A stretch of 54,405 nucleotides of DNA from an uncultured Bacilli bacterium (GCA_947628965.1 CANRBV010000004.1:1-54405), one strand, 5' to 3'. Numbered from the stretch's first letter, positions 22,993-43,987 are shown. The notes: generated by a model not told the origin, from the sequence alone. Program-made: numbers and translations.

Positions 22993-24330
22993 ATGACATA
23001 TCAAGAAATGCAACAAATTTTATTAAAAATAAAAAAATACCACTTAACAAATTTATTTGCAAATAAAGATGCTTTATGTACTTGGCTTGGTAGTTTAAAC
23101 CCCAAACAAATTCAAAACTTTTTAAGTATTGATTTAGAAAAAATAAATTTAAATAAAACTAACTTTTTAATTGATTTAGATTTATTAAATACCGATTATT
23201 ATAAGCAAGGTGTGAAACTTATATTTAATGTCAAATCTGATAAAATAGCTGAATATTTATGCCGTGTTGCTACAGATTCTGATTCATTAGCAAGCAAACA
23301 TCATAGACAAGATATGAAATTAATAGCAAATACTAAATCAGATAAAATAGCGAAATGTTTAAGTCTTGTTGCCAAAAATCTAAAATCATTAGCCAGTGAA
23401 CATCATAGAGAAGATATGAAATTAATAGCTAACGCTAAATCAGATGAAGTAACTAAATATTTATGCTATGTTGCTACATATTCTAATTCATTAGCTAGTG
23501 AATATCATAGTGAAGATATGAAATTAATTGCAAACGCAAGAACAGGATATATAGCATATAATTTATATGAGGTTGCTATAAATGTACACTCGTTAGCAAG
23601 CAAACATCATAGAGAAGATATGAAATTAATAGCTAACGCTAAATCAGGTATTATTGCCGAATGTTTACGTTATGTTGTCACAAATTCAAGTGAACATTAT
23701 AGTGAAGATATGAATTTAATTGCTAACGTTAAAATAGCTGGAATAGCAGTATACTTAAGTATTGTTGCCATAGATCCAAATTCAATAGCAAACGAATATC
23801 ATAGTGAAGATATGAACTTAATTGCAAATGCAAAAACAGAGTATATAGCAGATTGTTTACATGAAGTTGCTATAAATGTATATTCATTATCAAGTGATTA
23901 TCACCAAGACGATATGCAATTAATTTCTAATGCGGTGTCTGATAAAATAGCAGCCTGTTTAAAGGATGTTGCTACATATTCTAATTCATTAGCAAGTGAA
24001 TATCATAATACTGATATGAACTTAATTGCTAATGCTAAAACAGCTCAAATAGCCGAATGCTTATGTATAGTTGCAAAAGATGCAAATTCATTAGCAAATG
24101 CATATCATAGGGAATGTATGGAACAAATTGCCAATGCTGAATCTTATGAAGAAGCAAGAAAATTGACAGAAGCTTTATGCCCATATATAAAGGAGAATTC
24201 TAATTTAGCTTCTACTTTAGAATTAAGTCTAGATCAAACAATTCTTCTTTCTCTTACAAAGTTAGAAGAAATAGAATGTATAGATCAAGAAATAGAAACG
24301 AATGAAATCGAAAGAATTTTAAAAATTTAG
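22993..24330 (+). CDS. Tandem-repeat protein (34-aa helical units)
   Basis: About 10 copies of SLASxxHxEDMxLIANAKxxxIAxxLxxVAxxxx. Confidence 0.88.
   Translation: MTYQEMQQILLKIKKYHLTNLFANKDALCTWLGSLNPKQIQNFLSIDLEKINLNKTNFLIDLDLLNTDYYKQGVKLIFNVKSDKIAEYLCRVATDSDSLASKHHRQDMKLIANTKSDKIAKCLSLVAKNLKSLASEHHREDMKLIANAKSDEVTKYLCYVATYSNSLASEYHSEDMKLIANARTGYIAYNLYEVAINVHSLASKHHREDMKLIANAKSGIIAECLRYVVTNSSEHYSEDMNLIANVKIAGIAVYLSIVAIDPNSIANEYHSEDMNLIANAKTEYIADCLHEVAINVYSLSSDYHQDDMQLISNAVSDKIAACLKDVATYSNSLASEYHNTDMNLIANAKTAQIAECLCIVAKDANSLANAYHRECMEQIANAESYEEARKLTEALCPYIKENSNLASTLELSLDQTILLSLTKLEEIECIDQEIETNEIERILKI
23182..24189 (+). repeat. 102-bp coding tandem repeat
   Basis: Unit starts at 23284, 23386, 23488, 23590, then 23782 (two units with a 12-bp deletion), 23884, 23986, 24088. 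Confidence 0.92.
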
Positions 24331-29711: not shown

Positions 29712-30845
29712 ATGAATAAAAAAGATTATTATGAGGTTTTGGGCGTAAGTAAAGATGCCTCCGATGAAGAAATAAAAAGAGCCTTTCGTCGTCTTGCTAA
29801 ACAATACCATCCAGATGTTAATAAAAGCCCTGATGCCGAAGCAAAATTTAAAGAAATAGGAGAAGCCTATGCTATTCTTTCTGATCCAGAAAAACGTCGT
29901 CAATATGACCAATATGGCCATGCTGCCTTTGAAAATGGCGGGGCAGGATTTAGTGGCTTTGATATCAATGATATTGATTTGAGTTCCATATTTGAAGATT
30001 TATTTGGTTCTTCCTTTGGTGGAGGTTTTGGCTCTAATTTTGGATTTAACTTTGGTGGAGAAAATAGAAGAAATTCTCCTGTGAAAGGAAAAGATCGCTT
30101 AGTTACTTTAAATTTAACTTTTGAAGAAGCTGTTTTTGGATGTAAAAAAAGTATTCATTTGGATTTAAACGAATCTTGCGAAAATTGTCATGGCAAAGGT
30201 GGATTTAATGAAAAGAAATGTTCAAAATGTAATGGTCGTGGAGTCGTTGTAATGGAACAAAAATCAATGTTTGGTATTTTCCAAACCCAAACGACATGTC
30301 CTGATTGTGGCGGAAGTGGCGTTACTTTTGAACGTATTTGCTCAGAGTGTCATGGTACTGGATATCTAAAACAGAATAAAGAAATTGTTGTAAGTGTACC
30401 AGAGGGTGTTGATACTGGATATCAATTGCGTATTACAGGAAAAGGAGAAGCTGGAAAAAATGGTGGACCTAATGGTGATATTTATATTGAATTTAATGTA
30501 AAAAAACATGATTTCTTTGAAAGACATGAGGAAGATATTTATTTGGAAGTGCCTATAACAATTGTTGAAGCTGCACTTGGTTGTAAAAAAGAAATTCCAA
30601 CATTAGAAAATTCAGTTATGTTAGAAATTAAACCTGGAGCCTCTACAGGAGACAAATTACGCTTAAAAGGAAAAGGAATTAAAATACCAAACTCTTTACG
30701 TAAAGGAGATTTATATGTTATTTTAAATGTGGTTACCCCAACAAAATTAAATCGTAAACAAAAAAGTTTGTTAGAAGAACTTCGTGATACAGGATTAGAA
30801 GATGAAACGATTTTTAAAAATTTTCAAAAAAATTTAAAAAAATAA
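29712..30845 (+). CDS. dnaJ: Chaperone DnaJ
   Basis: [13 protein letters not shown] region, four CxxCxGxG zinc motifs; start after GAGGTG. Confidence 0.98.
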
Positions 30846-30876
30846 AAAAATATACTAATTTTTTAAAATTTAGCTC

Positions 30877-30913
30877 AAAAAAGACAAATTTGTTCTAATA
30901 ATTTGTCTTTTTC
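30877..30913. terminator. Intrinsic terminator after dnaJ (same hairpin at 40333-40369)
   Basis: aaaaaagacaaatt-loop-aatttgtcttttt. Confidence 0.85.
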
Positions 30914-31042
30914 TATGGAAATTTTGGTTAAAACTTTATTAAATATATATTTGCTTTTCTATTTTTTCTTTGCTATATTGACCATACGAGTATTAAATTA
31001 TGGTGTTTGCCACCAATTTTTAAAAGAAACGAGGTGGCCACG

Positions 31043-31126
31043 ATGACAAAAAAAGATTTTTTAATTGCAGCATTGATCGTGATAATTATTTTATTAATCG
31101 TATTCTTGATAATTAACGTTTGTTAA
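31043..31126 (+). CDS. 27-aa hydrophobic peptide MTKKDFLIAALIVIIILLIVFLIINVC, candidate type I toxin (copy 1)
   Basis: TTGCTT(30951)-17-TATATT(30974) promoter; GAGGTG SD paired with upstream GCCACC; single-TM peptide. Confidence 0.7.
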   Translation: MTKKDFLIAALIVIIILLIVFLIINVC

Positions 31127-31150
31127 ATTAGTGGTTTTGGTTGATAAGGT

Positions 31151-31222
31151 AAAAAAAACACCATTTCCAATAAGGAATGATGTTTGCAAAAAACAGGCAA
31201 GCACTAAATTTAGTACTCGCAT
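31151..31222 (-). ncRNA. Candidate antisense antitoxin sRNA (copy 1)
   Basis: Minus-strand TTGCAT(31257-31252)-17-TATAAT(31234-31229); ends in a hairpin plus U-run (plus-strand A8 at 31151-31158); ends are approximate. Confidence 0.55.
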
Positions 31223-31320
31223 AATTAAATTATACTATAAAATATAAATAAATGCAAATTGAATTGAAAGTAAAGGAAAAAAAGAGTAAAATTTAAATTA
31301 AGATATGGAGGAAATAAAAT

Positions 31321-31389
31321 ATGAATTATTTTAAAGAGAACCTCCCAACCAAGACAAATAGAGGTTTCGAGGGAAAAGTAGACTTTTAA
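31321..31389 (+). CDS. 22-aa orphan leader ORF MNYFKENLPTKTNRGFEGKVDF
   Basis: GGAGG SD; TTGAAA(31264)-17-TAAAAT promoter; same 5' coding sequence as 38192 and 40774 but without poly-G. Confidence 0.5.
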   Translation: MNYFKENLPTKTNRGFEGKVDF

Positions 31390-31438
31390 TCCGACTACCT
31401 AAAATGGTTAAAAAATTTAATAAAAGGAATTTAGTGTT

Positions 31439-31881
31439 ATGAAGAAATTTTTAATTTTAATTTTAGGGTTTGCATTATTACTATTTATAAGTACTAGGAT
31501 AGAAAAAAACTTAATTAATCAAAAAAAGAAGAAGAAGCTAAATATGCAGCTTTTAATATTGAATCCCTTAAAAATACTGGAACGAAACTGCATATTTGTT
31601 CTATTGCTGATAATTTAAAAGATTGTCCTAAAGAATATTTGATTAAAAGTATTGATTCTATTGAGACTATCCATTCTTTTTTTGATTTGGTTTTAGCTGG
31701 TGAACGTTATAGTGGTACTGTAGCAGGCGTAGGTCCTAGTTATAAAATTGTTATGTTTGATTCTAATGATCAAATAAGCGCGGTAGCCTATTTTTATCCA
31801 GGATTAGATTTTTATGTAAATGGTAAATCTTATTGTTTTATAAAAGTTGATAGAGAGGCAATATTAGATTTAATTAGTTAG
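31439..31881 (+). pseudogene. Secreted/membrane protein split by a one-base frameshift at an A7 run (147 aa if joined)
   Basis: MKKFLILILGFALLLF signal-like start in one frame; body continues in the -1 frame from 31528 into ORF 31639-31881. Confidence 0.6.
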
Positions 31882-32015
31882 CTTGTGTATTTTAAAAATT
31901 AAATTAAACTTATAGACAAATAGGTAAGGAATTACTTATTTGTTTTTTTAAATTTTTAAATTCTTTTAGCGATTTAAGAAAAATGTGATAAAATGATAAA
32001 AGAAGGTGTAAAAAA

Positions 32016-32666
32016 GTGGCAAAACAAGTAGTGAATCTTTTAAAATATGAACAAGAATTATATAAAAAGAATATTACATTAATAGCAGGCGTAGATGAAG
32101 TTGGCCGTGGACCACTTGTAGGTCCAGTAGTTGCTGCTGCTGTTATCCTTCCTAAAAATTATAAATGTGAAGGCCTTACCGATTCTAAACAATTGAGTGA
32201 GAAAAAAAGAGAAAAGTATTACGAAATAATAAAAAGAGATGCGCTTGCTATTGGAGTAGGAGAAATCTCTGCCAAAAAAATAGATGAAGTAAATATTTAT
32301 GAAGCCAGTAAACTTGCAATGTATGAAGCCTTAAAGCATTTAAAAATACAACCCGAGCACGTTTTAATTGATGCGATGAAATTAGATTTAGATGTTCCAT
32401 CAACCAGTATTATTCATGGAGATGCCCTATCTTTATCTATCGCTGCTGCAAGTGTTATAGCTAAAGTTTCCAGAGATCGAATGATGATGGAATTACACGT
32501 TAAACATCCTGAATATCATTTTGATAAACACAAAGGTTATCCAACCAAATTACACTTAGAATGTTTAAAAAAATATGGTCCACTTGAAAATTACCGATTT
32601 ACATATAAGCCAGTTCGTGATTTAATTAAGAAAGGTGAAGAAGAAAATGAAGAAGTATTTCAATAA
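32016..32666 (+). CDS. rnhB: Ribonuclease HII
   Basis: AGVDEVGRGPLVGPV, DSKQL, IDA, HGD..S.SIAAAS..AKV.RD, KGYPT. Confidence 0.97.
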   Translation: MAKQVVNLLKYEQELYKKNITLIAGVDEVGRGPLVGPVVAAAVILPKNYKCEGLTDSKQLSEKKREKYYEIIKRDALAIGVGEISAKKIDEVNIYEASKLAMYEALKHLKIQPEHVLIDAMKLDLDVPSTSIIHGDALSLSIAAASVIAKVSRDRMMMELHVKHPEYHFDKHKGYPTKLHLECLKKYGPLENYRFTYKPVRDLIKKGEEENEEVFQ

Positions 32667-34704
32667 TATTGTTGTTAAAAATTACATTTCTTTTTTAGTT
32701 CCTTTATTTATAATAGAGGTTTTATTTCGTATTTTAGAGGGAATGCCGATATTTGATTGGGCAGTCTTAAGAATCTTTATCAGTTCTAATATTCTTTCCT
32801 TATTTGTAAGTATTCTAACGAGTTTTATGAAAGAAAAAATAGGAAATATCTTTAGTGGGATTGTTTTGTTTATAATAGCCATTTATACCACTTTACAAGC
32901 AGGGTTCCAAAATTTTTTAGGGGTCTATATCTCACTCGGAACTAGTAGTCAACTAGGTGCGGTTAAAGAGTATATTGGAGATTATTTTTCTTCTTTTAAT
33001 CCTCTTTTTTGGACGATTTTCATTCCTTTTGTTCTTTATCTTATTTATAAAATATTTATTGAAAATAAAATATTTCGAATTGAAAAAAATAAATTTCAAA
33101 AAAGAATAAATAGGAAAATAGCAGGTATTTTTACTGTAGTTCTTTTTTTGCTTGCTGGAATTTATAATATAACTTTATTTGCTTCCTTTATGCAAAATGA
33201 TTTACAATTAGAAAGTACCAAATATTTGTTTAAAAAGCCAGACAATCCCAATATTAGTGTTAATCAATTTGGAACAAGTGTTTTTGGTCTTTTAGATGTA
33301 AAAACAACTCTTTTTAAAAATACTGAAGAAGAACTTATTTTATTTGATGATCAAATTAAAGATCAAGAAATTACGGATAATTCTCGTATAATAGATGATA
33401 CTGCTTGGAAAAATCTTGCAGATAATACAACAAATAGTACTTATAAAACTTTGAATAGCTATTTTATGAATAGAACAATTACGGATAAGAATGAATATAC
33501 AGGAATGTTTGAAGGTAAAAATGTTATTATTATCATGATGGAAAGTGTTGGCAATATGATTGTAAATAGAGAGTACTATCCAACATTTTATAAATTGTAT
33601 AGTGAAGGCTTTAGTTTTTCCAATAATTATTCTCCAAGAAATTCTTGTGCAACAGGAAATAATGAAATGAGTGGAATGATAAGTTTATTTAGTATTTATA
33701 GAACTTGTACAGCAAATAAATATCAACATAATAAATATGATGAAAGCATTTTTGGCTTGTTTAATAATGCTGGATATACAACGAGTTCTTTCCATGATTA
33801 CACAGAAGCTTATTACTATCGTTCTACAATTCATAAAAATATGGGAAGTGGTGCTTACTATGGGGTACAAGATTTAAAAATTCCTTATAACTGGGTATAT
33901 GAAGAGTGGCCAAGTGATGTACTTTTAATGGAAAGAGCTATGGAACATATTGATACAACAAAACCTTTTATGGCATGGATGACAACCGTTACATCTCATC
34001 AACCTTATTATGTCTCAAGTGAATTTGGAGATAAATATTTAAGTATGTTTAAAGATACCAATTATTCGATGGGAACAAAGCGTTATCTTTCTAAATTAGT
34101 AGAATTTGATCATGCTTTAGCAAGACTTTTGGAACTATTAGAAGAAAAGGGTATTTTAGATGACACTGTTTTGGTATTATTTGGAGATCATTATCCATAT
34201 GGACTACATGATAGTGATGTTGTAAGTGTCTTGCCAGATGCTTTGGAAAGAAATAATATTGAAAAAACCCCATTTGTTATATATAATAGTGGAATGGAAG
34301 GCAAGAATTTTAAAGAATATACATCCTATATAAACATTGTACCAACAATTGCTAACCTATTTAATTTAAATTATGATCCTAGATTATATATTGGAGAAGA
34401 TATTTTAAATCCAGAATATGCAACATCTTATAAAAATAGAGTAATATTTGCAGATGGCTCTTGGGAAACAAGTATAGGTTCTTATAATGCTACTACTGGA
34501 AAAATGACTTATTTCGGCGATGAACAATATACGAACGATGAAATTATTGCATACAATAAAGAAATTAATAATATGATAAAAATGAGTAATTTAGCAATTA
34601 CATCAAATTACTTTGAATATTTAAGTGATGGACTAAAAAAATACTATTTGGATACATTAAATCCAACTACAAATGAGGAAGAAAATACAAGTACAGAACA
34701 ATAG
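32647..34704 (+). CDS. LTA synthase family (LtaS-like) membrane sulfatase
   Basis: Five N-terminal TM helices, IIMMES, ATGNNE, FHDY, FGDHYPY. Confidence 0.88.
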   Translation: MKKYFNNIVVKNYISFLVPLFIIEVLFRILEGMPIFDWAVLRIFISSNILSLFVSILTSFMKEKIGNIFSGIVLFIIAIYTTLQAGFQNFLGVYISLGTSSQLGAVKEYIGDYFSSFNPLFWTIFIPFVLYLIYKIFIENKIFRIEKNKFQKRINRKIAGIFTVVLFLLAGIYNITLFASFMQNDLQLESTKYLFKKPDNPNISVNQFGTSVFGLLDVKTTLFKNTEEELILFDDQIKDQEITDNSRIIDDTAWKNLADNTTNSTYKTLNSYFMNRTITDKNEYTGMFEGKNVIIIMMESVGNMIVNREYYPTFYKLYSEGFSFSNNYSPRNSCATGNNEMSGMISLFSIYRTCTANKYQHNKYDESIFGLFNNAGYTTSSFHDYTEAYYYRSTIHKNMGSGAYYGVQDLKIPYNWVYEEWPSDVLLMERAMEHIDTTKPFMAWMTTVTSHQPYYVSSEFGDKYLSMFKDTNYSMGTKRYLSKLVEFDHALARLLELLEEKGILDDTVLVLFGDHYPYGLHDSDVVSVLPDALERNNIEKTPFVIYNSGMEGKNFKEYTSYINIVPTIANLFNLNYDPRLYIGEDILNPEYATSYKNRVIFADGSWETSIGSYNATTGKMTYFGDEQYTNDEIIAYNKEINNMIKMSNLAITSNYFEYLSDGLKKYYLDTLNPTTNEEENTSTEQ

Positions 34705-34715
34705 AAAGGAAAAAT

Positions 34716-36737
34716 ATGAAAAAATTAGTCATTGTTGAGTCTCCAGCAAAGAGTAAAACAATTGAAAAATACTTAGGTAGTGATTATAAAGTTGTTTCAA
34801 GCAAAGGACACATTCGCGACTTAGCAACAAGTGGAAAATTTGGTTTAGGTGTTGATGTAGATCACGATTTTAAACCCAATTATATTCCTATAAAAGGAAA
34901 AATGAAAGATATTAATGCTTTGAAAAAAGATGTCAAAAATTCCAGCTTTGTTTATTTAGCAACTGACCCAGACCGAGAAGGGGAAGCTATTTCTTGGCAT
35001 TTAAAAGATACATTAGATATTGAGGATAACTATAGTCGTGTCGTTTTTAACGAAATAACAAAGGATGTTGTAATCGATGCTATGAAGCATCCTCGTAAAA
35101 TAGATGAAAATTTAGTAAAAAGTCAAGAAACAAGAAGAATTTTAGATCGTATTATCGGATTTCGATTAAGTAAATTAATGCAATCTAAAACAGGTGGAAA
35201 AAGTGCTGGTCGAGTGCAAAGTGTAGCATTAAAATTGATTGTTGATCGTGAACGTGAAATTGAGGCCTTTATTCCTGAAGAATATTGGACAATTACTGCT
35301 GATTTTAAAGATTTTACAGCTGATTTAGAGAAATATCATGGTAAAAAAGTAGAGATTAAAAGTGAAATAGAAGCTAGTGAAATTCTTGATAAGCTATCCA
35401 AATCTTTTAAATTAGAAGATATTAAGGAAAGTGATACTTCTAAAAGTGCTAAGCCTGTTTTTAAAACAAGTACCATGCAAAGAATGGCAGCGAATCGTAT
35501 TAATTTTGCTCCATCCAAAACAATGCGTATTGCCCAAAAGCTTTATGAAGGAATTGATATTGGTAGTGAAACAGTTGGTTTAATAACTTATATGCGTACT
35601 GATTCTGAAAGAATTTCCAGCTCTTTTGTTTCGGAAACTTATGAATATATTAAAAAAAATTATGGCCCAGAATATATTGGAAGTGTTAAGGTAGGTAAAA
35701 AAGATAAAACAATGCAAGATGCCCATGAAGGTATAAGGCCTACAAGCATTTATCGTACACCTGAAAGTGTAAAAAAGTATTTAACAAATGATGAATATAA
35801 GTTATATAATTTAATTTATATTCGTGCCTTATCTTCTTTAATGGCGAATGCAAAATTTAAAACTACTACGATTATTTTAGAAAATAACGGCTATACTTTT
35901 AAAACAACAGGCAGTGTGCTTACTTTTGAAGGATATTTAAAAATCTATGCTAGTTTTGAAGAGCAAACCGATACTCTTCTGCCTGATTTTCAAAGTTATA
36001 AAAGTAGTACTATTATTGCCAATCGTATTTTAAAGGAACAACACTTTACAAAACCACTTCCAAGATATACGGAAAGCAGTTTAATTAAAGAAATGGAAAA
36101 TTTAGGAATAGGAAGACCAAGTACTTATTCAACTATTTTATCTACGATTAAGGATCGTGGATATGTTACCATTTTAGATAAAAAAATGATTCCAACAGAT
36201 ATTGGTGTAGAAACAACCGATAAATTACAAGAATTCTTTAGTGATATTGTCAATGTTGAATATACAAGTGCTATGGAAACTGATTTAGACAAAATTGCTG
36301 ATGAAGAAAAAGATAATATTAAAGTTTTACATGAATTTTATAATAAATTTGAACCATGTGTAGAGGAAGCATTTGCCAAAATGGAAAAGAAAGAAGCTGA
36401 AAAGACTGGTGAAGTTTGCCCTGAATGTGGCAATGATTTAGTAATTCGTAATGGAAAATACGGAAAATTTACCGCTTGTTCAAATTATCCAGATTGTAAA
36501 TATATTAAAAAAGAAGAAAAAGTGATTACTGAACTTTGCGATTGCCCAAAATGTGATGGAAAAATAGTTGAAAAAAGAACCCGAAAAGGAAAATTTTTCT
36601 ATGGTTGTTCAAATTATCCAAAATGCGATTTTGCTTCTTGGTATAAACCAACTGGTGAAATATGTCCAAATTGTAATTGGCCACTTGTTGAAAAGAAGAA
36701 TAAAATTGCTTGTTCAAACTGTGATTTCGAAAAATAA
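34716..36737 (+). CDS. topA: DNA topoisomerase I
   Basis: LVIVESPAK, ATDPDREGE, SAGRVQS, LITYMRTD, C-terminal C4 zinc ribbons. Confidence 0.99.
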   Translation: MKKLVIVESPAKSKTIEKYLGSDYKVVSSKGHIRDLATSGKFGLGVDVDHDFKPNYIPIKGKMKDINALKKDVKNSSFVYLATDPDREGEAISWHLKDTLDIEDNYSRVVFNEITKDVVIDAMKHPRKIDENLVKSQETRRILDRIIGFRLSKLMQSKTGGKSAGRVQSVALKLIVDREREIEAFIPEEYWTITADFKDFTADLEKYHGKKVEIKSEIEASEILDKLSKSFKLEDIKESDTSKSAKPVFKTSTMQRMAANRINFAPSKTMRIAQKLYEGIDIGSETVGLITYMRTDSERISSSFVSETYEYIKKNYGPEYIGSVKVGKKDKTMQDAHEGIRPTSIYRTPESVKKYLTNDEYKLYNLIYIRALSSLMANAKFKTTTIILENNGYTFKTTGSVLTFEGYLKIYASFEEQTDTLLPDFQSYKSSTIIANRILKEQHFTKPLPRYTESSLIKEMENLGIGRPSTYSTILSTIKDRGYVTILDKKMIPTDIGVETTDKLQEFFSDIVNVEYTSAMETDLDKIADEEKDNIKVLHEFYNKFEPCVEEAFAKMEKKEAEKTGEVCPECGNDLVIRNGKYGKFTACSNYPDCKYIKKEEKVITELCDCPKCDGKIVEKRTRKGKFFYGCSNYPKCDFASWYKPTGEICPNCNWPLVEKKNKIACSNCDFEK

Positions 36738-36937
36738 CTATCTAAGAAGAGATAATCTCTCTTTTTTTTAAATTTTACAAATTTTATTAAAATTGGTTTA
36801 AAAAAGATAAATTTTTATTAAAATTTTTCTTTTTTTATAACAAATTTATGTAAAATGAAACTAAATTTGCAAAATTGGTAATTTGCAATCTTTTTTTTTC
36901 TTTGTTATATTCCCGTTTAGAAAGGAGGTAACTTATT

Positions 36938-37282
36938 ATGAATCAGGTTGTTTTGGTTGGTAGACTTTGTTGTGAACCAGAAATTATTGGAGATGATGAA
37001 AGAAAAAGAAGTATTATAACCATAGCTGTAAATCGTCCTTTTAAAAATATGGATGGTATTTACGAAACAGATTTTATTCGTTGTGTTTTGTGGAATAATA
37101 TTGCTCTAAATACTTTTGAGTATTGTCATACAGGAGATGTCATTGGTATAAAGGGAAGACTTCAAACAAGCAGTTATGAAGATGAACAAAAAAATAAAAA
37201 ATCTGTTATGGATGTCATCGCTGAAAAAGTTACTTTTTTATCTTCAAATAATAAAAATTCGGAAAAAGAAAGAAAAGAATAA
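36938..37282 (+). CDS. ssb: Short single-stranded DNA-binding protein (SsbB-like, no acidic tail)
   Basis: MNQVVLVGRL, IAVNRPFKN, DFIRCVLW, GRLQTSSY; lacks the C-terminal DDxPF tail. Confidence 0.9.
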   Translation: MNQVVLVGRLCCEPEIIGDDERKRSIITIAVNRPFKNMDGIYETDFIRCVLWNNIALNTFEYCHTGDVIGIKGRLQTSSYEDEQKNKKSVMDVIAEKVTFLSSNNKNSEKERKE

Positions 37283-37297
37283 CATATATTTAACTAG

Positions 37298-38101
37298 GTG
37301 ATTTTTTTGAAGAAGATATATAAAACTTTAGGACTAGTAGCAATTACTCTTTTTAGTTTTTATTATACGGAAAAAATTGCAATTTTAATGCAAAATAAAA
37401 GTCCCATTATGCAAAGCATTAATGAAATTGAAGACAACTATAAAGTTGAAGCTGTTAATGCAACCATAGAGGAAAATTATGTTATTCCTGGCATTATGGG
37501 ACGAATGATTAATAAATCAAAAAGTTATGTTAATATGAAAGCTTTTGGCTTATTTAATGAATATTATTTGATTTTTGATAATATTAAACCCGATATATCT
37601 TTAGAAGATAATAAAGATAAAATTATTAAAAAAGGAAATAAAGAAAAGAAAGCAGTTGCTTTTTTATTAGAGGATGGAAGTGAGCAAATTAAGAATTACC
37701 TCAAAGAAAATAAAATACCTGCTAGTCTTTTAATACAAGAAAATACTTATCAAAATAATAATTATTTTGAACAAATTAATAATGATAAGGAAAAATATAA
37801 AAATGTAGAGAGTTTATTAAATAAAAATAATCAAAATAAAAATATTTGTTATATAAAAAATTTAGGTAAAGATTTATGCCAAAAAGAAAAAAAATATTTA
37901 ATAGAGGAAACAATGACTTTGAATAGTAATAATTTAATAGAAGCTAAAAAAAGAGTAGAAAGTGGAGCAATTTTCTATATTCAAAAAAATGTCAATCTAG
38001 AACATTTGAAACTTTTAATAAAAGAAATTGAATTTAAAGGTTTAAAAATTATAACTGTAAGTGATTTAATAAGTGAAAAGGAAATGCAATATAAAAATTA
38101 A
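37298..38101 (+). CDS. Degenerate polysaccharide deacetylase-like membrane protein
   Basis: N-terminal TM; KAVAFLL, ESGAIF, IEFKGLKIITVSDLI resemble NodB-fold ends; catalytic motifs not evident. Confidence 0.55.
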   Translation: MIFLKKIYKTLGLVAITLFSFYYTEKIAILMQNKSPIMQSINEIEDNYKVEAVNATIEENYVIPGIMGRMINKSKSYVNMKAFGLFNEYYLIFDNIKPDISLEDNKDKIIKKGNKEKKAVAFLLEDGSEQIKNYLKENKIPASLLIQENTYQNNNYFEQINNDKEKYKNVESLLNKNNQNKNICYIKNLGKDLCQKEKKYLIEETMTLNSNNLIEAKKRVESGAIFYIQKNVNLEHLKLLIKEIEFKGLKIITVSDLISEKEMQYKN

Positions 38102-38134
38102 AAGGGGAAATAATTTTCTTCTTTTTTTCATGTC

Positions 38135-38163
38135 TTGAAAATATTATTATTTTTTTGTACAAT
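38135..38163 (+). promoter_or_regulatory. sigmaA-type promoter of surface protein gene A
   Basis: TTGAAA(38135)-17-TACAAT(38158); GAGGAGG SD before ATG38192. Confidence 0.65.
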
Positions 38164-38191
38164 AAAAGCAACAATAGAGGAGGATAAAAAC

Positions 38192-40290
38192 ATGAATCGT
38201 TTTAAAGAGAACCTCCCAACCAAGACAAATAGAGGTCTCGGGGGGGGGGTATATTAGAAAGTAAAAGAAAGAAACCCAGAGACCAAATAAAATGGTTAGT
38301 CCTTGGAATCGTCATAATAGGACTAAGTATCCTAGGAACAAGTTATGCTTATTGGAACTATACAGCAAGTCAAAATAAATATAATGAAGTAAGAAGTAGC
38401 TGTTTAAAACTAGCTATGGAAAATGAAAAAGATGCAATTAGTTTAAAAGAAGCTTATCCCTTAACAGATGAAGAAGGAAAAAAATTACAACCCTATACAT
38501 TTACAATACAAAACCTATGTGAAGAAAAAGCAAATTATACAGTAAAAGTAGAGAAATTAAAAAGAAAAGGAAAAGAAGAAACTACAATATTAGATAGTAA
38601 GTATGTAGCAATAGAAGTAAATGAAGGACAAAAAGAGATATTAGGGGATTATACAAAAGGAAGAAGTACCTATGAAGGAGAAGAGTACGAATCTATAGAA
38701 GCAAGAGAGATAGTAAAAGGAACAATAGAAGGAAAAGGAACAAAGGAATATAAAATAAGATTGTGGATGGATGAAAGTGTAGAAGCAACAGAAGAAACAA
38801 TGAATAAAAGTTTTATAAGTAAGATAGTAGTGGATGGAAATCTAAATGAGTTAGCAGAATATAACGAACCTATCTTACATGGAACAGATCCAGTATTAAA
38901 AGAAGAACTAGTACCAGTCGTAATAGATGATACAGGAAAAGTCACGAAAGCCAATACTAAAGAAGAGTGGTACAACTATGAAGAAAAAAGATGGGCAAAT
39001 GCGGTAATACTTACAAATAATAAAACAGCTGATAATTATAAAGAAGGAGAACAAATACTAGAAAGTGACATAGAAAGTTATTTTGTATGGATACCAAGAT
39101 ACAATTATAAATTATTTAATACAACGAATTTTACCTATACAGCATCAACTGAAGGAGAAGTAGCAAGTCCACAAATAATAGAGGTAAGGTTTGGAACAAA
39201 AGAAACAAATGATAAAAATAAAAATGAATGCACAACACCAGGAGAATCAGGTAATATTGGAAACTGCAACAATGGCGATTGGATGACGCATCCAGCATTT
39301 CTAGCATTTCCTAATACGAAAGGTTTATGGGTCGGCAAATTTGAGACAGGATATAAGGGAGCAACCAGTACAACTACTGCTCAACATAATATAAATAACT
39401 CAAAACAAGTTATTATAAAACCAAATGTGTACAGTTGGAGAAGTATACAAGTATCAAATGCCTATCAAACTTCCTTTGGATATAAACGAGAATTAGAAAG
39501 TCATATGATGAAGAATACAGAGTGGGGAGCAGTAGCTTATTTACAACAAAGTTTGTATGGTTCTCATGAAAGTGTCAGAATTAATAACAATCGTGCTTAT
39601 TTAACAGGATATGCTGCAGTGAATAAACCAACTTGTGGATATACAGCAACAAATGAAACATGCAATAAATATGAAGAGGTGAATCTAGGGACAGGAATGA
39701 ATGCTCAAGATGGAACTTATACCTTAAATTATTTTAACTCAAAAAGTGTTTCTGCAAGTACTACTGGAAACTATTACGGTATTTATGATATGAGCGGAGG
39801 ATCAGTTGAATACATGATGGCTGTGATGGTAGATGAAAATGGCAAACCATCAAGTGGAAGGAATAGTCTTTATAATAGTGGATTCAATGGAACATTAACA
39901 TGTCCCAATTGCGCAGAAGGAACATTAAAACCAGATGGTACAACTGAGGTAAAAGATGGAATAGATTTTCCAAGGGAATCGAAATATTATGATACTTATA
40001 AATATTCGAAGAGTGCTAATGATTATACAAACGGAATCTTAGGAGATGCATCAAGTGAAATGGGCCCATTTAAAAATGCGGTTTATACTCCAACAAATGG
40101 TGAAGAAGCTCAAACAAGACATATTAGCGGGTGGTATGACGAAGATATATTACCTATTATTTATGGATTTCCATGGATCATGCGAGGTTTAGGTACTTCT
40201 CATGGTATTGGTGCAGGAATCTTTTCTTTGGATCGTGCTTATGGAAATTTGAGTAACGTTCGCAGTTTCCGTATTGTTCTTGCACTTTAA
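38192..40290 (+). CDS. Surface protein A: SipW-class signal plus C-terminal FGE-sulfatase/CLec-like domain; frameshifted at G10 (699 aa if G11)
   Basis: Leader frame stops at TAG after GGGVY; -1 frame from 38251 gives ...WLVLGIVIIGLSILGTSYAYW and is open into ORF 38416; GIYDMSGG and FRIVLAL motifs. Confidence 0.85.
38240..38249 (+). repeat. Poly-G (G10) contingency tract
   Basis: Ten consecutive G in an AT-rich genome, starting at codon 17 of gene A. Confidence 0.9.
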
Positions 40291-40498
40291 TTTAAAAAAT
40301 GAAAAAAATACCAATTTTTTAAAATTTAGTTCAAAAAAGACAAATTTGTTCTAATAATTTGTCTTTTTCTATGGAAATTTTGGTTAAAACTTTATTAAAT
40401 ATATATTTGCTTTTCTATTTTTTCTTTGCTATATTGACCATACGAGTATTAAATTATGGTGTTTGCCACCAATTTTTAAAAGAAACGAGGTGGCCACG

Positions 40499-40582
40499 AT
40501 GACAAAAAAAGATTTTTTAATTGCAGCATTGATCGTGATAATTATTTTATTAATCGTATTCTTGATAATTAACGTTTGTTAA
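40499..40582 (+). CDS. 27-aa hydrophobic peptide, candidate type I toxin (copy 2, identical)
   Basis: Same as 31043-31126; promoter TTGCTT 40407 / TATATT 40430. Confidence 0.7.
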   Translation: MTKKDFLIAALIVIIILLIVFLIINVC

Positions 40583-40606
40583 ATTAGTGGTTTTGGTTGA
40601 TAAGGT

Positions 40607-40677
40607 AAGAAAAAACACCATTTCCAATAAGGAATGATGTTTGCCAAACGGGCAAGCACTAAATTTAGTACTCGCAT
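40607..40677 (-). ncRNA. Candidate antisense antitoxin sRNA (copy 2)
   Basis: Minus-strand TTGCAT(40712-40707)-17-TATAAT(40689-40684); same hairpins; ends are approximate. Confidence 0.55.
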
Positions 40678-40773
40678 AATTAAATTATACTATAAAATAT
40701 AAATAAATGCAAATTGGATTGAAAGTAAAGGAAAAAAAGAGTAAAATGAAATTAAGATATGGAGGATTAAAAC

Positions 40774-42695
40774 ATGAATCATTTTAAAGAGAACCTCCCA
40801 ACCAAGACTAGTAGGCGTCTCGGGGGGGGGGTATATTAGAAAGTAAAAGAAAGAAACCCAGAGACCAAATAAAATGGTTAGTCCTTGGAATCGCCATAAT
40901 AGGATTAAGTATTTTAGGAACAAGTTATGCTTATTGGAACTATACAACACATCAAGAAGGAATAAATGAAATCCAAACTTCTTGTATTAAATTAGCATTA
41001 GAAAATGAATTAAATAGTATCACAATAGAAAATGCATATCCTTTAAAGGATGAAGAAGGAGAAAAATTAACGCCTTATAAATTTACAATAAAAAATGTAT
41101 GCAAAACAACAGTGAATTACACAATAAAAATAGAACAATTAAAACCAAATAACGAAGAAGAAACAAATCAAATAGAAAGTAAGTATATAGCAATAGAAGT
41201 AAATGAAGGACAAAAAGAGATATTAGGGGATTATACAAAAGGAAGAAGTACCTATGAAGGAGAAGAGTACGAATCTATAGAAGCAAGAGAGATAGTAAAA
41301 GGAACATTAAAAGGAGAAGAAAGTAGAAACTATGCTATAAAACTATGGATGGATGAAAATGTAACATTAGAAGATAATGTAGTAAATAAAAAGTTTATAG
41401 GTAAAGTTGTAGTAGATGGAAATCTAAATGAGTTAGCAGAATATAACGAACCCATCTTACATGGAACGAATCCAGTACTAAAAGAAGAATTAGTGCCAGT
41501 CGTAATAGATGATAAAGGAAATGTAACAAAAGCCAATACCAAAGAAGAGTGGTACAACTATGAAGAAAAAAGATGGGCAAATGCAATCATCTTAGCAAAT
41601 GGAAGTTCTGAAGATTATAAAGAAGGAGAACAAATACCAGAAGAGGATATAGAAAGTTATTTTGTATGGATACCCAGATATAATTATAAACTTTTTGATA
41701 TGGGAGAATATACTAGTGTAACGGATGCAATAACAAACAAAGGACCCACAACAGCAATTCAAATAAGATTTGGAACAAGCGATACAACCGATACAAAAAA
41801 AGAATGTGCAACGCCAAAAGTGTCAGGGGAAAGTGGAGATTGTGCAGTAGGGAAGTGGATGACGCATCCAGCATTTTTAGCTTTTGAAAACACCAAAGGA
41901 TTATGGGTAGGCAAATTTGAAACAGGATATAATCAAAGTGAAGATGGTTCATTAAAAGATACAACAAGTTGGACTAAAGAAAATGCAGTACAAAAGGTTA
42001 GTGATCCTGAAAAAATTATCATCAAGCCAAATTTGTATAGTTGGAGTGGAATGGTCATAGCAAATGCCTACCAAACAAGTTTTAATTATAAACGAGATTT
42101 AGAAAGTCATATGATGAAGAATACAGAGTGGGGAGCTGTAGCTTACCTTACCAATTCTTTATATGGAAGATGTACGAAAGTAAATGGGCAAGCTACTTGT
42201 ACAGAAGTAACACAAAATCGAAATAGTGAGTCTTTAACAGGCTATACATATGAAAGCGGTAAATATCCAAATTCAACGGGAGCAAGTACAACCGCTAATC
42301 GTTCAGGAATCTATGATATGAGTGGGGGAAATTGGGAAAGCGTTATGGGAATTATGGCGAATGCAAATGGTACTTTGCAATTCAATACAGAGAGTGGATT
42401 TACAAACGAAAATTTTCCAACCGAGGAGAAATATTATGATAAATATTTGTATAATTCACATCTCCAAATTTATAATAAAAGAATCCTTGGAGATGCAACT
42501 GGAGAATTGGGACCTTTTTCAAGTAAGAATGGTACGATAAGTTCAATGTATAGTGATTATGCTTGGTTTGTTTGTTATAATGGCATTTTCTTTCGCCGTG
42601 GTGGACATGTTAGTACTGGATCTAATGATGGACTTTTTGCCTTTTATTATATGAATGGTAATATGGGTGTTTTTCGTATTGTTCTTGCCTTATAA
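40774..42695 (+). CDS. Surface protein B, paralogue of A; frameshifted at G10 (640 aa if G11)
   Basis: GGAGG SD; MNHFKENLPTKTSRRLGGGVY-stop; -1 frame from 40833 is open into ORF 41112; TSYAYW signal, GIYDMSGGNWE, FRIVLAL. Confidence 0.85.
40822..40831 (+). repeat. Poly-G (G10) contingency tract
   Basis: Ten G starting at codon 17 of gene B. Confidence 0.9.
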
Positions 42696-42773
42696 AAGGT
42701 CTATTTATGTTAAAAATTTTAAAATAAAATGAGTAAAAAAAAATAAAAATTCATAGAGCGAAGTTTTATTTTT

Positions 42774-43391
42774 TTAAAATTTTCTATAAAGACCAATGGC
42801 TTTTCCTAAAATTGTACAATCATTTAATATAATCGGGGCCATGGTATCATTTTCAGGCTGTAAGCGAATATGATCCTTTTCTTTGTAGAAGGTTTTTAAT
42901 GTAACTTCATTATCAAAAGTCATCGCTACAACTATATCACCATTTCTTGCTACTTTTTGTTTTTGGACAATGACATAATCTCCATCAAATATACCTTTGT
43001 TTATCATAGATTCACCACTAACATGAAGAGCAAAGACAGTTTCTTTTTTAGGAACTAAAGATGCAGGAATATTAAAAAATTCGTTTGGTTGTTCTATTGC
43101 TTCAATAGGACTACCTGCTGTTATTTTTCCTAGCAATGGAATTTTAATAACATCTTCGTCTTTTTCTAAATATTCATTTTCAACAAGAACTTCTATTGTT
43201 CTAAATTTGTTATTGCTTGTTTTAATGACACCAGCGCTCTCTAATTTTTTTATGTGAGCATGGACAGTTGCTGGGCTTGATAATCCAAGACCTTCACATA
43301 TTTCGCGAATAGAAGGTGGAAATCCATGCATTGCCGTGTATTTTTTAATAAAAGTTAAGACTTCAGTTTGTTTTAGTGTTAATTCTTTCAT
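42774..43391 (-). CDS. lexA: SOS repressor LexA
   Basis: GFPPSIREI, SSPATVH, AG cleavage site, GESM (Ser), TLK (Lys). Confidence 0.98.
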   Translation of the reverse strand: MKELTLKQTEVLTFIKKYTAMHGFPPSIREICEGLGLSSPATVHAHIKKLESAGVIKTSNNKFRTIEVLVENEYLEKDEDVIKIPLLGKITAGSPIEAIEQPNEFFNIPASLVPKKETVFALHVSGESMINKGIFDGDYVIVQKQKVARNGDIVVAMTFDNEVTLKTFYKEKDHIRLQPENDTMAPIILNDCTILGKAIGLYRKF

Positions 43392-43414
43392 AAAAGTTTT
43401 TCCTTTCCATTTTT

Positions 43415-43492
43415 ATATTAACACTTTATGTGTAAAAAGTCAAACAAATGTTCACAATTCTTCTTGACACGAACAAATATACGTGTTAATCT
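43415..43492. promoter_or_regulatory. Divergent lexA / SOS-operon promoters with SOS (Cheo) boxes
   Basis: Minus TTGACT(43443-43438)-17-TAATAT; plus TTGACA(43464)-17-TAATCT; AAACAAATGTTC at 43442-43453 and CGAACAAATATACG at 43470-43483 resemble GAAC-N4-GTTC. Confidence 0.8.
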
Positions 43493-43515
43493 TAAAACAG
43501 AAAGAAGGAATGTAT

Positions 43516-43662
43516 ATGAAAAAAATATGGACAAAATATTGTGGAGCTATTTTGCTCTACTCGGTGGTCTTTTTTGGTATCATTGCCATCAATATCAGAT
43601 ATAAATTTTTGAATGAACAAAATATAGAAAGGGATTGCTCAATTGTAGCAATTGGAGATTAA
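43516..43662 (+). CDS. 48-aa single-pass membrane protein in the yneA position (candidate SOS division inhibitor)
   Basis: AAGGA SD; MKKIWTKYCGAILLYSVVFFGIIAINIRYKFLNEQNIERDCSIVAIGD; missed by the ORF track. Confidence 0.7.
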   Translation: MKKIWTKYCGAILLYSVVFFGIIAINIRYKFLNEQNIERDCSIVAIGD

Positions 43663-43663
43663 T

Positions 43664-43987
43664 ATGCAAGAACAACTTATATACTCCTTATCACGTGGGG
43701 ACAATTTAGATTATATTCAAAAATATGTTTTAGAAAAAGAAAAAGGAACTAAAGTTATTCAAAAAGATATTTCTAATGAAATGTTTCATTTATTTTTTGG
43801 TATTATGGAATTAGGAAAAGAAGTAAGAAATGCTTTAAAAAATGATACCTATTTAGATACCGAACTGAAAATAGCGGATATATTCCTCATCTTAATTGCT
43901 CTATGCAATAATTTGAATATCAATTTATTTGATGCTTTAATAAAAAAAGAACAATTTTTAAATGGAAAAATGGCAAAATGGTTTTAA
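43664..43987 (+). CDS. MazG-like nucleotide pyrophosphatase fold protein, degenerate
   Basis: ELGKEVR and ELKIADIFLILIALCNNLNINL..A...KE pattern; GGAG SD before ATG43664. Confidence 0.65.
   Translation: MQEQLIYSLSRGDNLDYIQKYVLEKEKGTKVIQKDISNEMFHLFFGIMELGKEVRNALKNDTYLDTELKIADIFLILIALCNNLNINLFDALIKKEQFLNGKMAKWF

Follow-up and report, generated by a model that had tools for sequence, protein, structure and literature searches.

The window analyzed here is a 54,405-nucleotide (nt) stretch of an uncultured Bacilli bacterium (GCA_947628965.1, CANRBV010000004.1:1-54405), whose genome assembly (G000) comprises 1.23 Mb in 57 contigs, with 28% GC and a completeness of 91%. Repeat searches, MAFFT alignment and a whole-genome search of G000 show that the window contains two direct repeats, copy 1 (30838-31375) between dnaJ and a small gene, p147, and copy 2 (40294-40830) between genes A and B, two members of a predicted surface-protein family. 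Their start-to-start spacing is 9456 bp, and both are on the forward strand, as are all features below for which no other orientation is given. Each copy consists of a ~423-bp unit that resembles a type I toxin-antitoxin (TA) locus, followed by the promoter, Shine-Dalgarno (SD) sequence and first codons of a surface-protein gene. We refer to the composite as a cassette, a term that is not to be read as denoting a device. The gene order 3' of copy 1 is p147, rnhB, an LtaS-like gene and topA, and the segment between the copies also includes an ssb-like gene, p267 and gene A.

The two copies are 95.0% identical overall (515 of 542 columns in a global alignment), and because of this length and identity the repeat is not a chance product. 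Similarity is highest in the core (30860-31150), which extends from a terminator to 24 nt past a small open reading frame (ORF) and is identical at 290 of 291 positions (99.7%). The toxin-unit part as a whole (30838-31260, the first 423 bp) has 97.6% identity and the family promoter from -35 to -10 has 96.9%, but the segment from the -10 box to the poly-G site at the end of the repeat has just 81%. The 100-nt flanks outside the repeat are unrelated (48-52%), and the longest identical run between the copies is 278 nt. An initial annotation of this DNA had described near-identical direct repeats 9456 bp apart, which is confirmed over ~540 bp by repeat search, alignment and genome search, and each of the parts it listed (terminator, TA-like module, promoter, SD and leader) is present in the sequence. 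It also placed the repeats correctly, although the true ends lie ~20 bp further to the left and ~10 bp further to the right.

Both copies are reproduced in contigs assembled from other samples of the same species. Gene A, copy 2 and gene B are present in one piece in contigs L066, L067 and L124, the copy-1-specific right junction into p147 is found in L066-L068 and L070, and the left junction between dnaJ and copy 1 in L071, L072, L074 and L075. Sequence variants specific to copy 1, on both the dnaJ and the p147 sides, recur in at least four samples. Short-read contigs end inside copy 1, as would be expected of a true repeat with a longest identical run of 278 nt. The initial annotation had raised the prospect that one copy is a misassembly, and the recovery of the junctions of both copies from other samples does not bear this out.

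In the cassette two independent repeat families adjoin each other, and they differ in copy number and in boundaries. Cassette positions 1-440 occur twice in G000, and positions 441-536, containing the promoter, SD and leader, are the only part to recur genome-wide, with 13 leaders in G000. The ends of the toxin unit are defined in the related genome G015, in which all pairwise comparisons of five copies share common ends at about -210 and +217/+226 relative to the toxin ATG. Mapping of these boundaries to the window places the right end at ~31260, in the short gap between the antisense -35 box and the family -35 box at 31264. Identical ends in multiple contexts are a property of the 423-bp toxin unit in G015, not of the 538-bp cassette. 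The -35 region ATTGAAAGTAAAGG is common to both window copies and absent from every other family member, showing that the duplication included the family promoter. Beyond the -10 box copy 1 has a mosaic sequence, matching gene A at AAATAGAGGT and other family members around the ATG. As the initial annotation had observed, an ORF and repeat search of the cassette reveals no transposase (no ORF exceeds 47 amino acids, aa) and no terminal inverted repeats, the sole inverted-repeat pair being an internal hairpin matched between the copies. No target-site duplication is evident, and the toxin unit has zero matches in phage and plasmid collections.

The toxin unit (30838-31260 in copy 1 and 40294-40715 in copy 2), delimited by alignment and by the common ends in G015, has a predicted design resembling that of convergent, 3'-overlapping type I TA loci. 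At its left end is a terminator-like hairpin (30878-30912; -10.9 kcal/mol, z = -4.3), conserved in the units of relatives, which would stop transcription from dnaJ in copy 1 or from gene A in copy 2 and so shield the toxin gene from read-through. The predicted toxin promoter, TTGCTT-17-TGCTATATT with an extended -10 (30951-30979), was read from the sequence; a comparison of 15 modules shows its -35 and TGnTAnnnT elements to be conserved, and it lies under the threshold of a consensus promoter scan. Transcription from it would start near 30986 and yield the message for a 27-aa membrane peptide, with the SD GAGGTGG locked in a stem of the 5' untranslated region (UTR; 31009-31038, z = -2.6 on folding) formed by GCCACC (31009-14) and GGUGGC (31033-38). 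In an alignment of 14 sequences 98.8% of the cells in this stem are paired, with two pairs changed on both sides. A long-range GCGAG/CUCGC pairing between the 5' and 3' ends of the toxin mRNA was also considered and dropped, the one variant copy (L040) lacking compensation.

The peptide, MTKKDFLIAALIVIIILLIVFLIINVC, is encoded at 31043-31126 and identically at 40499-40582, and begins with MTKKD, after which come 22 residues that are mostly hydrophobic. Among the peptides of this type the C-terminus is a single D/N/G/R residue or INVC. ORF searches identify homologues mostly of 21-31 aa, and at least 42 of 60 loci in relatives have a hydrophobic small ORF of the MxKKDFLIxxLLVIIILLIIFD type, some of them longer variants, with conserved SD and ATG. 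Pairwise comparison of 17 distinct 22-aa homologues yields 6.5, 2.4 and 10.9 differences at codon positions 1, 2 and 3 respectively, and 933 synonymous versus 879 non-synonymous codon differences; the codon-position pattern argues that the small ORF is a translated gene.

On the reverse strand, a predicted convergent antisense small RNA (sRNA) of 72 nt occupies 31151-31222 (40608-40677 in copy 2) and folds into two hairpins followed by a U-run (-24.5 kcal/mol, z = -6.7). It is preceded by a near-consensus promoter, TTGCAT-17-TATAAT (31229-31257, reverse strand), which is conserved in relatives and was detected by the scan in a 1-nt-shifted register (TTTGCA-18-TATAAT). Among 58 distinct sequences 94.6% of the cells are paired and 6 of 16 pairs are changed on both sides, a pairing signal above all 500 shuffles and all slid controls. 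The sRNA would overlap the region 3' of the peptide ORF and would presumably pair with the toxin mRNA, triggering its decay or blocking its translation.

A covariance model of the sRNA element (R1), which scores the two window copies at 72.7 and 63 bits, was run on 31 genomes of the genus and 150 other genomes of the order. It identifies 82 copies in 12 of the 31 congeners, with 1-15 per genome and exactly two in G000, and has no match in the sister genome G041; beyond the genus there are weak matches alone, in two of the 150 genomes. Pfam has no match to the peptide or to genes A and B, NCBIfam has nothing for the two genes and nothing better than E = 0.9 for the peptide, and a search of the cassette against Rfam gives none at gathering score or E <= 1. 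Nor is there a profile match to known type I toxin or antitoxin RNA families (Fst/Ldr, TxpA/BsrG, Ibs, Hok and others). The unit thus appears to be a new, lineage-restricted type I TA-like unit with no match in these three libraries. A third, diverged toxin-like locus was observed on G000 contig C19 (~24100-24300), with the SD GGGAGGTGA, the ORF MSKKDFLIFFLIIIILLLIVLLFVILK and a downstream CACCTAA...TTAGGTG hairpin, and is not detected by R1. The genome search also located, at 36770-36911 between topA and the ssb-like gene, a diverged sequence with 71% identity to the terminator and promoter at the left of the toxin unit; its TTGCAA/TGTTATATT promoter seems to serve the ssb-like gene, and G041 has an equivalent terminator-promoter piece upstream of its ssb.

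Intragenomic duplication is an established feature of type I TA loci (PMC2887945), as is a narrow host range (PMC2887945, PMC5367252). The unit shares with Bacillus subtilis TxpA/RatA and BsrG/SR4, and with Clostridioides difficile CD2517.1/RCd8 and its relatives, a tiny hydrophobic membrane peptide and a short convergent sRNA that has a strong promoter and a terminator hairpin of its own (both predicted here), as well as a structured 5' UTR hiding the SD and the presence of several copies per genome over a narrow taxonomic range (PMC2887945, PMC5961336, PMC5367252). It differs from the described loci in having no sequence or profile match and in its peptide of 21-27 aa (to ~31) with a charged N-terminal cluster.

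The second element is the conserved 5' end of a large surface-protein family. In copy 1 it occupies 31261-31375 and contains a promoter, TTGAAA-17-TAAAAT (31264-31292 from -35 to -10), the SD GGAGG (31307-31311) and a 16-codon leader starting with the ATG at 31321; the scanned segment from -35 box to start codon, 31264-31323, corresponds to 40719-40776 in copy 2. In 12 of the 13 leaders in G000 a tract of G8-G10 lies ~45 nt past the ATG, and in each poly-G leader exactly one of the three tract-length classes opens a frame of 299-733 aa. In the assembly the frame is open in just two members (contigs C3 and C8). Gene A (38192-40290) has a G10 tract at 38240-49 that is out of frame, and G8 or G11 would yield a product of 698/699 aa; gene B (40774-42695), headed by copy 2, likewise has an out-of-frame G10 (40822-31), with 639/640 aa predicted from G8 or G11. 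Consensus assemblies from other samples all have G10 at both genes, with no length variation. Past the tract the products have a basic stretch and then a membrane helix. Both the leader and the tract also occur in conserved form in G015, G009 and G044.

With its ~23 loci the family accounts for 3% of G000; about half of these loci have a poly-G leader, and congeners contain up to 55 matches (the 55 in G041). More than 6000 homologues are present in the protein database, none with a named function or Pfam domain, and a PDB sequence search with gene A returned a single insignificant match. A diversity-generating retroelement cannot explain the variable C-termini and was ruled out, because the 91%-complete G000 assembly has no reverse transcriptase (PF00078). 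The family is predicted to be a set of poly-G phase-variable surface-protein genes, switchable on and off, with the frame set by tract length. In Campylobacter, Neisseria and Helicobacter, surface genes with poly-G/C tracts in their coding sequence are simple-sequence contingency loci, and the family resembles these in having a 5' coding G tract that sets the frame and many paralogues, most of them out of frame in the consensus. It differs in that its host is a low-GC (28%) uncultured member of the Bacilli and its tract lies in a conserved 16-codon leader ahead of a membrane anchor. The vlp, vsp and vsa families of Mycoplasma similarly combine a conserved promoter and leader with divergent bodies in recombination-prone arrays, but those families encode lipoproteins and switch by a promoter poly-A tract or by site-specific inversion, whereas the family described here has poly-G in the coding region and an N-terminal helix anchor and does not encode lipoproteins.

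The two copies of the cassette differ in what they precede. Copy 2 is the intact, working 5' end of gene B. Copy 1 is, from its sequence, a relic that heads a 22-codon stump of a family gene (31321-31389), encoding MNYFKENLPTKTNRGFEGKVDF and then a stop, with neither poly-G tract nor gene body. The stump reads ATG...GGTTTCGAGGGAAAAGTAGACTTTTAA, and its homology to the family decays at 31366-31375, fading exactly at the expected poly-G position; an extension of the stump to 31411 through a shared AAAATGGTTA was dropped since the alignment is too weak. Downstream lies p147 (31439-31881), a small secreted protein gene which ORF and contig comparison show to be frameshifted at an A7 tract (31521-31527). 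It is split at this A7 in the window and in three other assemblies, and is intact with A8 in contig L070 (where it is called as a 143-aa product) and, at 147 aa, in G041. The A-tract could be a second slippery tract, the mark of a pseudogene or a low-coverage error.

The sister genome G041, with an RnhB 95% identical to that of G000, has neither cassette copy. Gene A, the toxin unit and gene B constitute a lineage-specific island of 4.7 kb (38102-42773, no orientation assigned), and at the corresponding site in G041 p267 and lexA are ~33 bp apart. At the copy 1 site the segment 30852-31412 (likewise unoriented) is missing from G041, which instead has 3.3 kb with three other genes, encoding an XRE-like membrane protein, a 240-aa secreted protein and a protease-like protein, in the order dnaJ, the three genes, p147, rnhB. 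The terminator-promoter stretch that precedes rnhB in G041 (contig L048; compare 31905-32000 of the window) is also present directly after dnaJ, and so the inserted block is flanked by a duplicated intergenic segment. Comparison of 30845-32016 with contigs L048, L049, L062-L065 and L076 shows that other congeners have the arrangements rbgA-rnhB and dnaJ-trmB; in G000 trmB follows rplS (contig C2) and rbgA is on contig C25. The dnaJ-rnhB junction is thus a synteny breakpoint private to G000 and G041.

Adjacency of the two elements was also assessed in relatives (n = 60 toxin units). Five units are followed, ~120-145 nt further on, by a family leader with G9-G10, six are preceded by a family gene, and nine have a family gene on one or both sides. 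These adjacent units are concentrated in G015 and G044, and G009 contributes one. Five of the seven units in G044 touch the family, and the order family gene, unit, family gene occurs there twice, as at copy 2; none of the ~28 units in G002, G007 and G042 is adjacent to a family gene. The -35 region at the join of unit and leader differs between the composites of different species.

We consider that the cassettes probably arose by a recent intrachromosomal duplication of a composite of the two independent elements, the copies having been kept alike, or re-homogenized, by gene conversion. Between the G000 copies the identity of the toxin unit is 97.6-99.7%, versus 68-77% against the copies of other species, and together with the absence of the cassette from G041 and the mosaic leader of copy 1 this upholds the earlier interpretation of the high identity as recent duplication or gene conversion. 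Copy 1 would be the remnant of a toxin unit-family gene arrangement at a second site, the synteny breakpoint beside dnaJ, where the family gene would have been lost from the poly-G position onward, leaving a promoter that now faces the stump and then p147; we infer both the mechanism of this truncation and the action of gene conversion at the copies. The toxin unit would travel as a passenger with the family-gene arrays in this clade, and in one clade would have joined the array repeat and been copied along with it. As one copy heads an intact gene and the other a dead stump, the cassette looks like recombination debris rather than a portable expression device.

Several points weigh against this interpretation. 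Either copy may have been the source, and the high identity may reflect a young duplication or ongoing conversion. The toxin unit, family promoter, leader and poly-G tract occur at similar spacing in G015, G009 and G044 (5 of 60 units), which exceeds a rough chance expectation of one or two, so some functional coupling may exist. As to the unit itself, the peptide carries its polar or charged cluster at the N-terminus (MxKKD), whereas most type I toxins described so far have it at the opposite end, a polar or aromatic C-terminal cluster having been a search criterion for such toxins (PMC2887945). Promoter-like sites are no commoner than in shuffled sequence (9 found against 9.9 expected), and we infer the transcription of both RNAs and the toxicity of the peptide from sequence features.

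It is possible, though rather unlikely, that the copies are instead footprints of active homologous recombination, with the family 5' units, each made up of promoter, leader, poly-G tract and membrane anchor, serving as handles by which gene bodies move between expression sites. Several observations hint at this. In contig L127 (sample ERZ27249483, low coverage), compared with 40741-43684 of the window, the gene B body is 99.4% identical beyond 40914, but the 5' unit and upstream gene that precede it are instead those of G000 contig C25, with no gene A and no toxin unit, and the terminal 77 nt of C25 are identical to gene B and follow a C25-type 5' unit. Between L124 and the window a dense patch of ~38 differences in ~230 nt of gene B (41424-41651), in strains otherwise 99.7% identical, looks like a gene-conversion tract from another family member, and the leader of copy 1 is itself mosaic. 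Contig L073 (low coverage) has dnaJ and a toxin unit with a third linker variant, joined to a family-gene fragment and a sigma-factor gene. The joins in L127, C25 and L073 could reflect gene conversion and swapping of 5' units, or could be chimeras formed through identical repeat cores.

A distinctly less probable alternative is a functionally coupled module, in which the toxin unit is retained beside contingency-gene arrays because it stabilizes the island against loss by recombination, or because its convergent transcripts and back-to-back promoters insulate or modulate the downstream phase-variable gene. The nine units of 60 that touch a family gene are consistent with coupling, as are the five of seven in G044, two of them in the exact order family gene, unit, family gene, and the back-to-back arrangement of the sRNA and family -35 boxes, ~7 nt apart. 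There is also a precedent in C. difficile, in which type I TA loci are co-localized with clustered regularly interspaced short palindromic repeat (CRISPR) arrays (PMC5961336). The TA-like units described here similarly lie in a variable, repeat-rich chromosomal region, but unlike the C. difficile pairing their association is partial (~15% of units), is confined to one clade and is known at the level of sequence. The total lack of adjacency in G002, G007 and G042 speaks against coupling, and the adjacent cases, lying in one clade, are probably paralogous copies of one array unit and not independent events. Stabilization is also difficult to reconcile with the geometry of the repeats. Were the copies to recombine, the genes lost or amplified would be p147, rnhB, the LtaS-like gene, topA, the ssb-like gene, p267 and gene A, and the initial annotation had suggested that the TA module could penalize such loss. 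This reasoning is flawed, because after recombination between direct repeats the chromosome still has one hybrid toxin unit, and the module cannot punish loss of the segment; a deletion would be penalized, if at all, through the loss of rnhB, the LtaS-like gene and topA. No deletion or amplification junctions are seen among the contigs available from other samples.

The initial annotation had further proposed that the whole terminator-TA-promoter-leader block is a portable expression site, mobile as one unit and supplying expression signals to different surface genes. This we regard as very improbable. The composite, with a leader and poly-G ~120 nt past the unit, does occur in four species (G000, G015, G009 and G044), and the toxin units of G015 have sharp common ends. 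However, the genome and relatives searches that the annotation had recommended place the whole cassette only twice in G000, and elsewhere the two parts largely go their own ways: 11 of the 13 G000 leaders have no toxin unit, and 55 of the 60 units in relatives have no family gene downstream. Also against mobility as a block are the joining -35 region, different in each species' composite, the lack of a transposase, terminal inverted repeat or visible target-site duplication, and the lack of a match to the unit in phage or plasmid collections, while copy 1 would express a stump alone, with neither poly-G nor gene body. Finally, that one copy is a misjoin or a collapsed repeat has almost no probability, for although short-read contigs stop at the cassette and its 278-nt identical run is longer than common k-mer sizes, the single contigs spanning gene A, copy 2 and gene B in three other samples and the recurrence of both the left and right variants of copy 1 in at least four samples largely refute it.

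The duplication itself is ordinary, as repeats of TA loci and conserved 5' ends of variable surface-gene families are both familiar. What the repeat marks is a lineage-restricted toxin/antisense-like unit that is missing from current profile libraries, and it also draws attention to a very large family of poly-G-switched surface proteins in a small-genome uncultured member of the Bacilli. If the family 5' units do act as recombination handles, recombinational antigenic variation would be added to poly-G switching, with the toxin units carried along and possibly stabilizing the arrays. Swapping of 5' units would then combine slipped-strand switching with recombinational shuffling, a combination of switching and shuffling that mycoplasmas and Neisseria achieve by other means.

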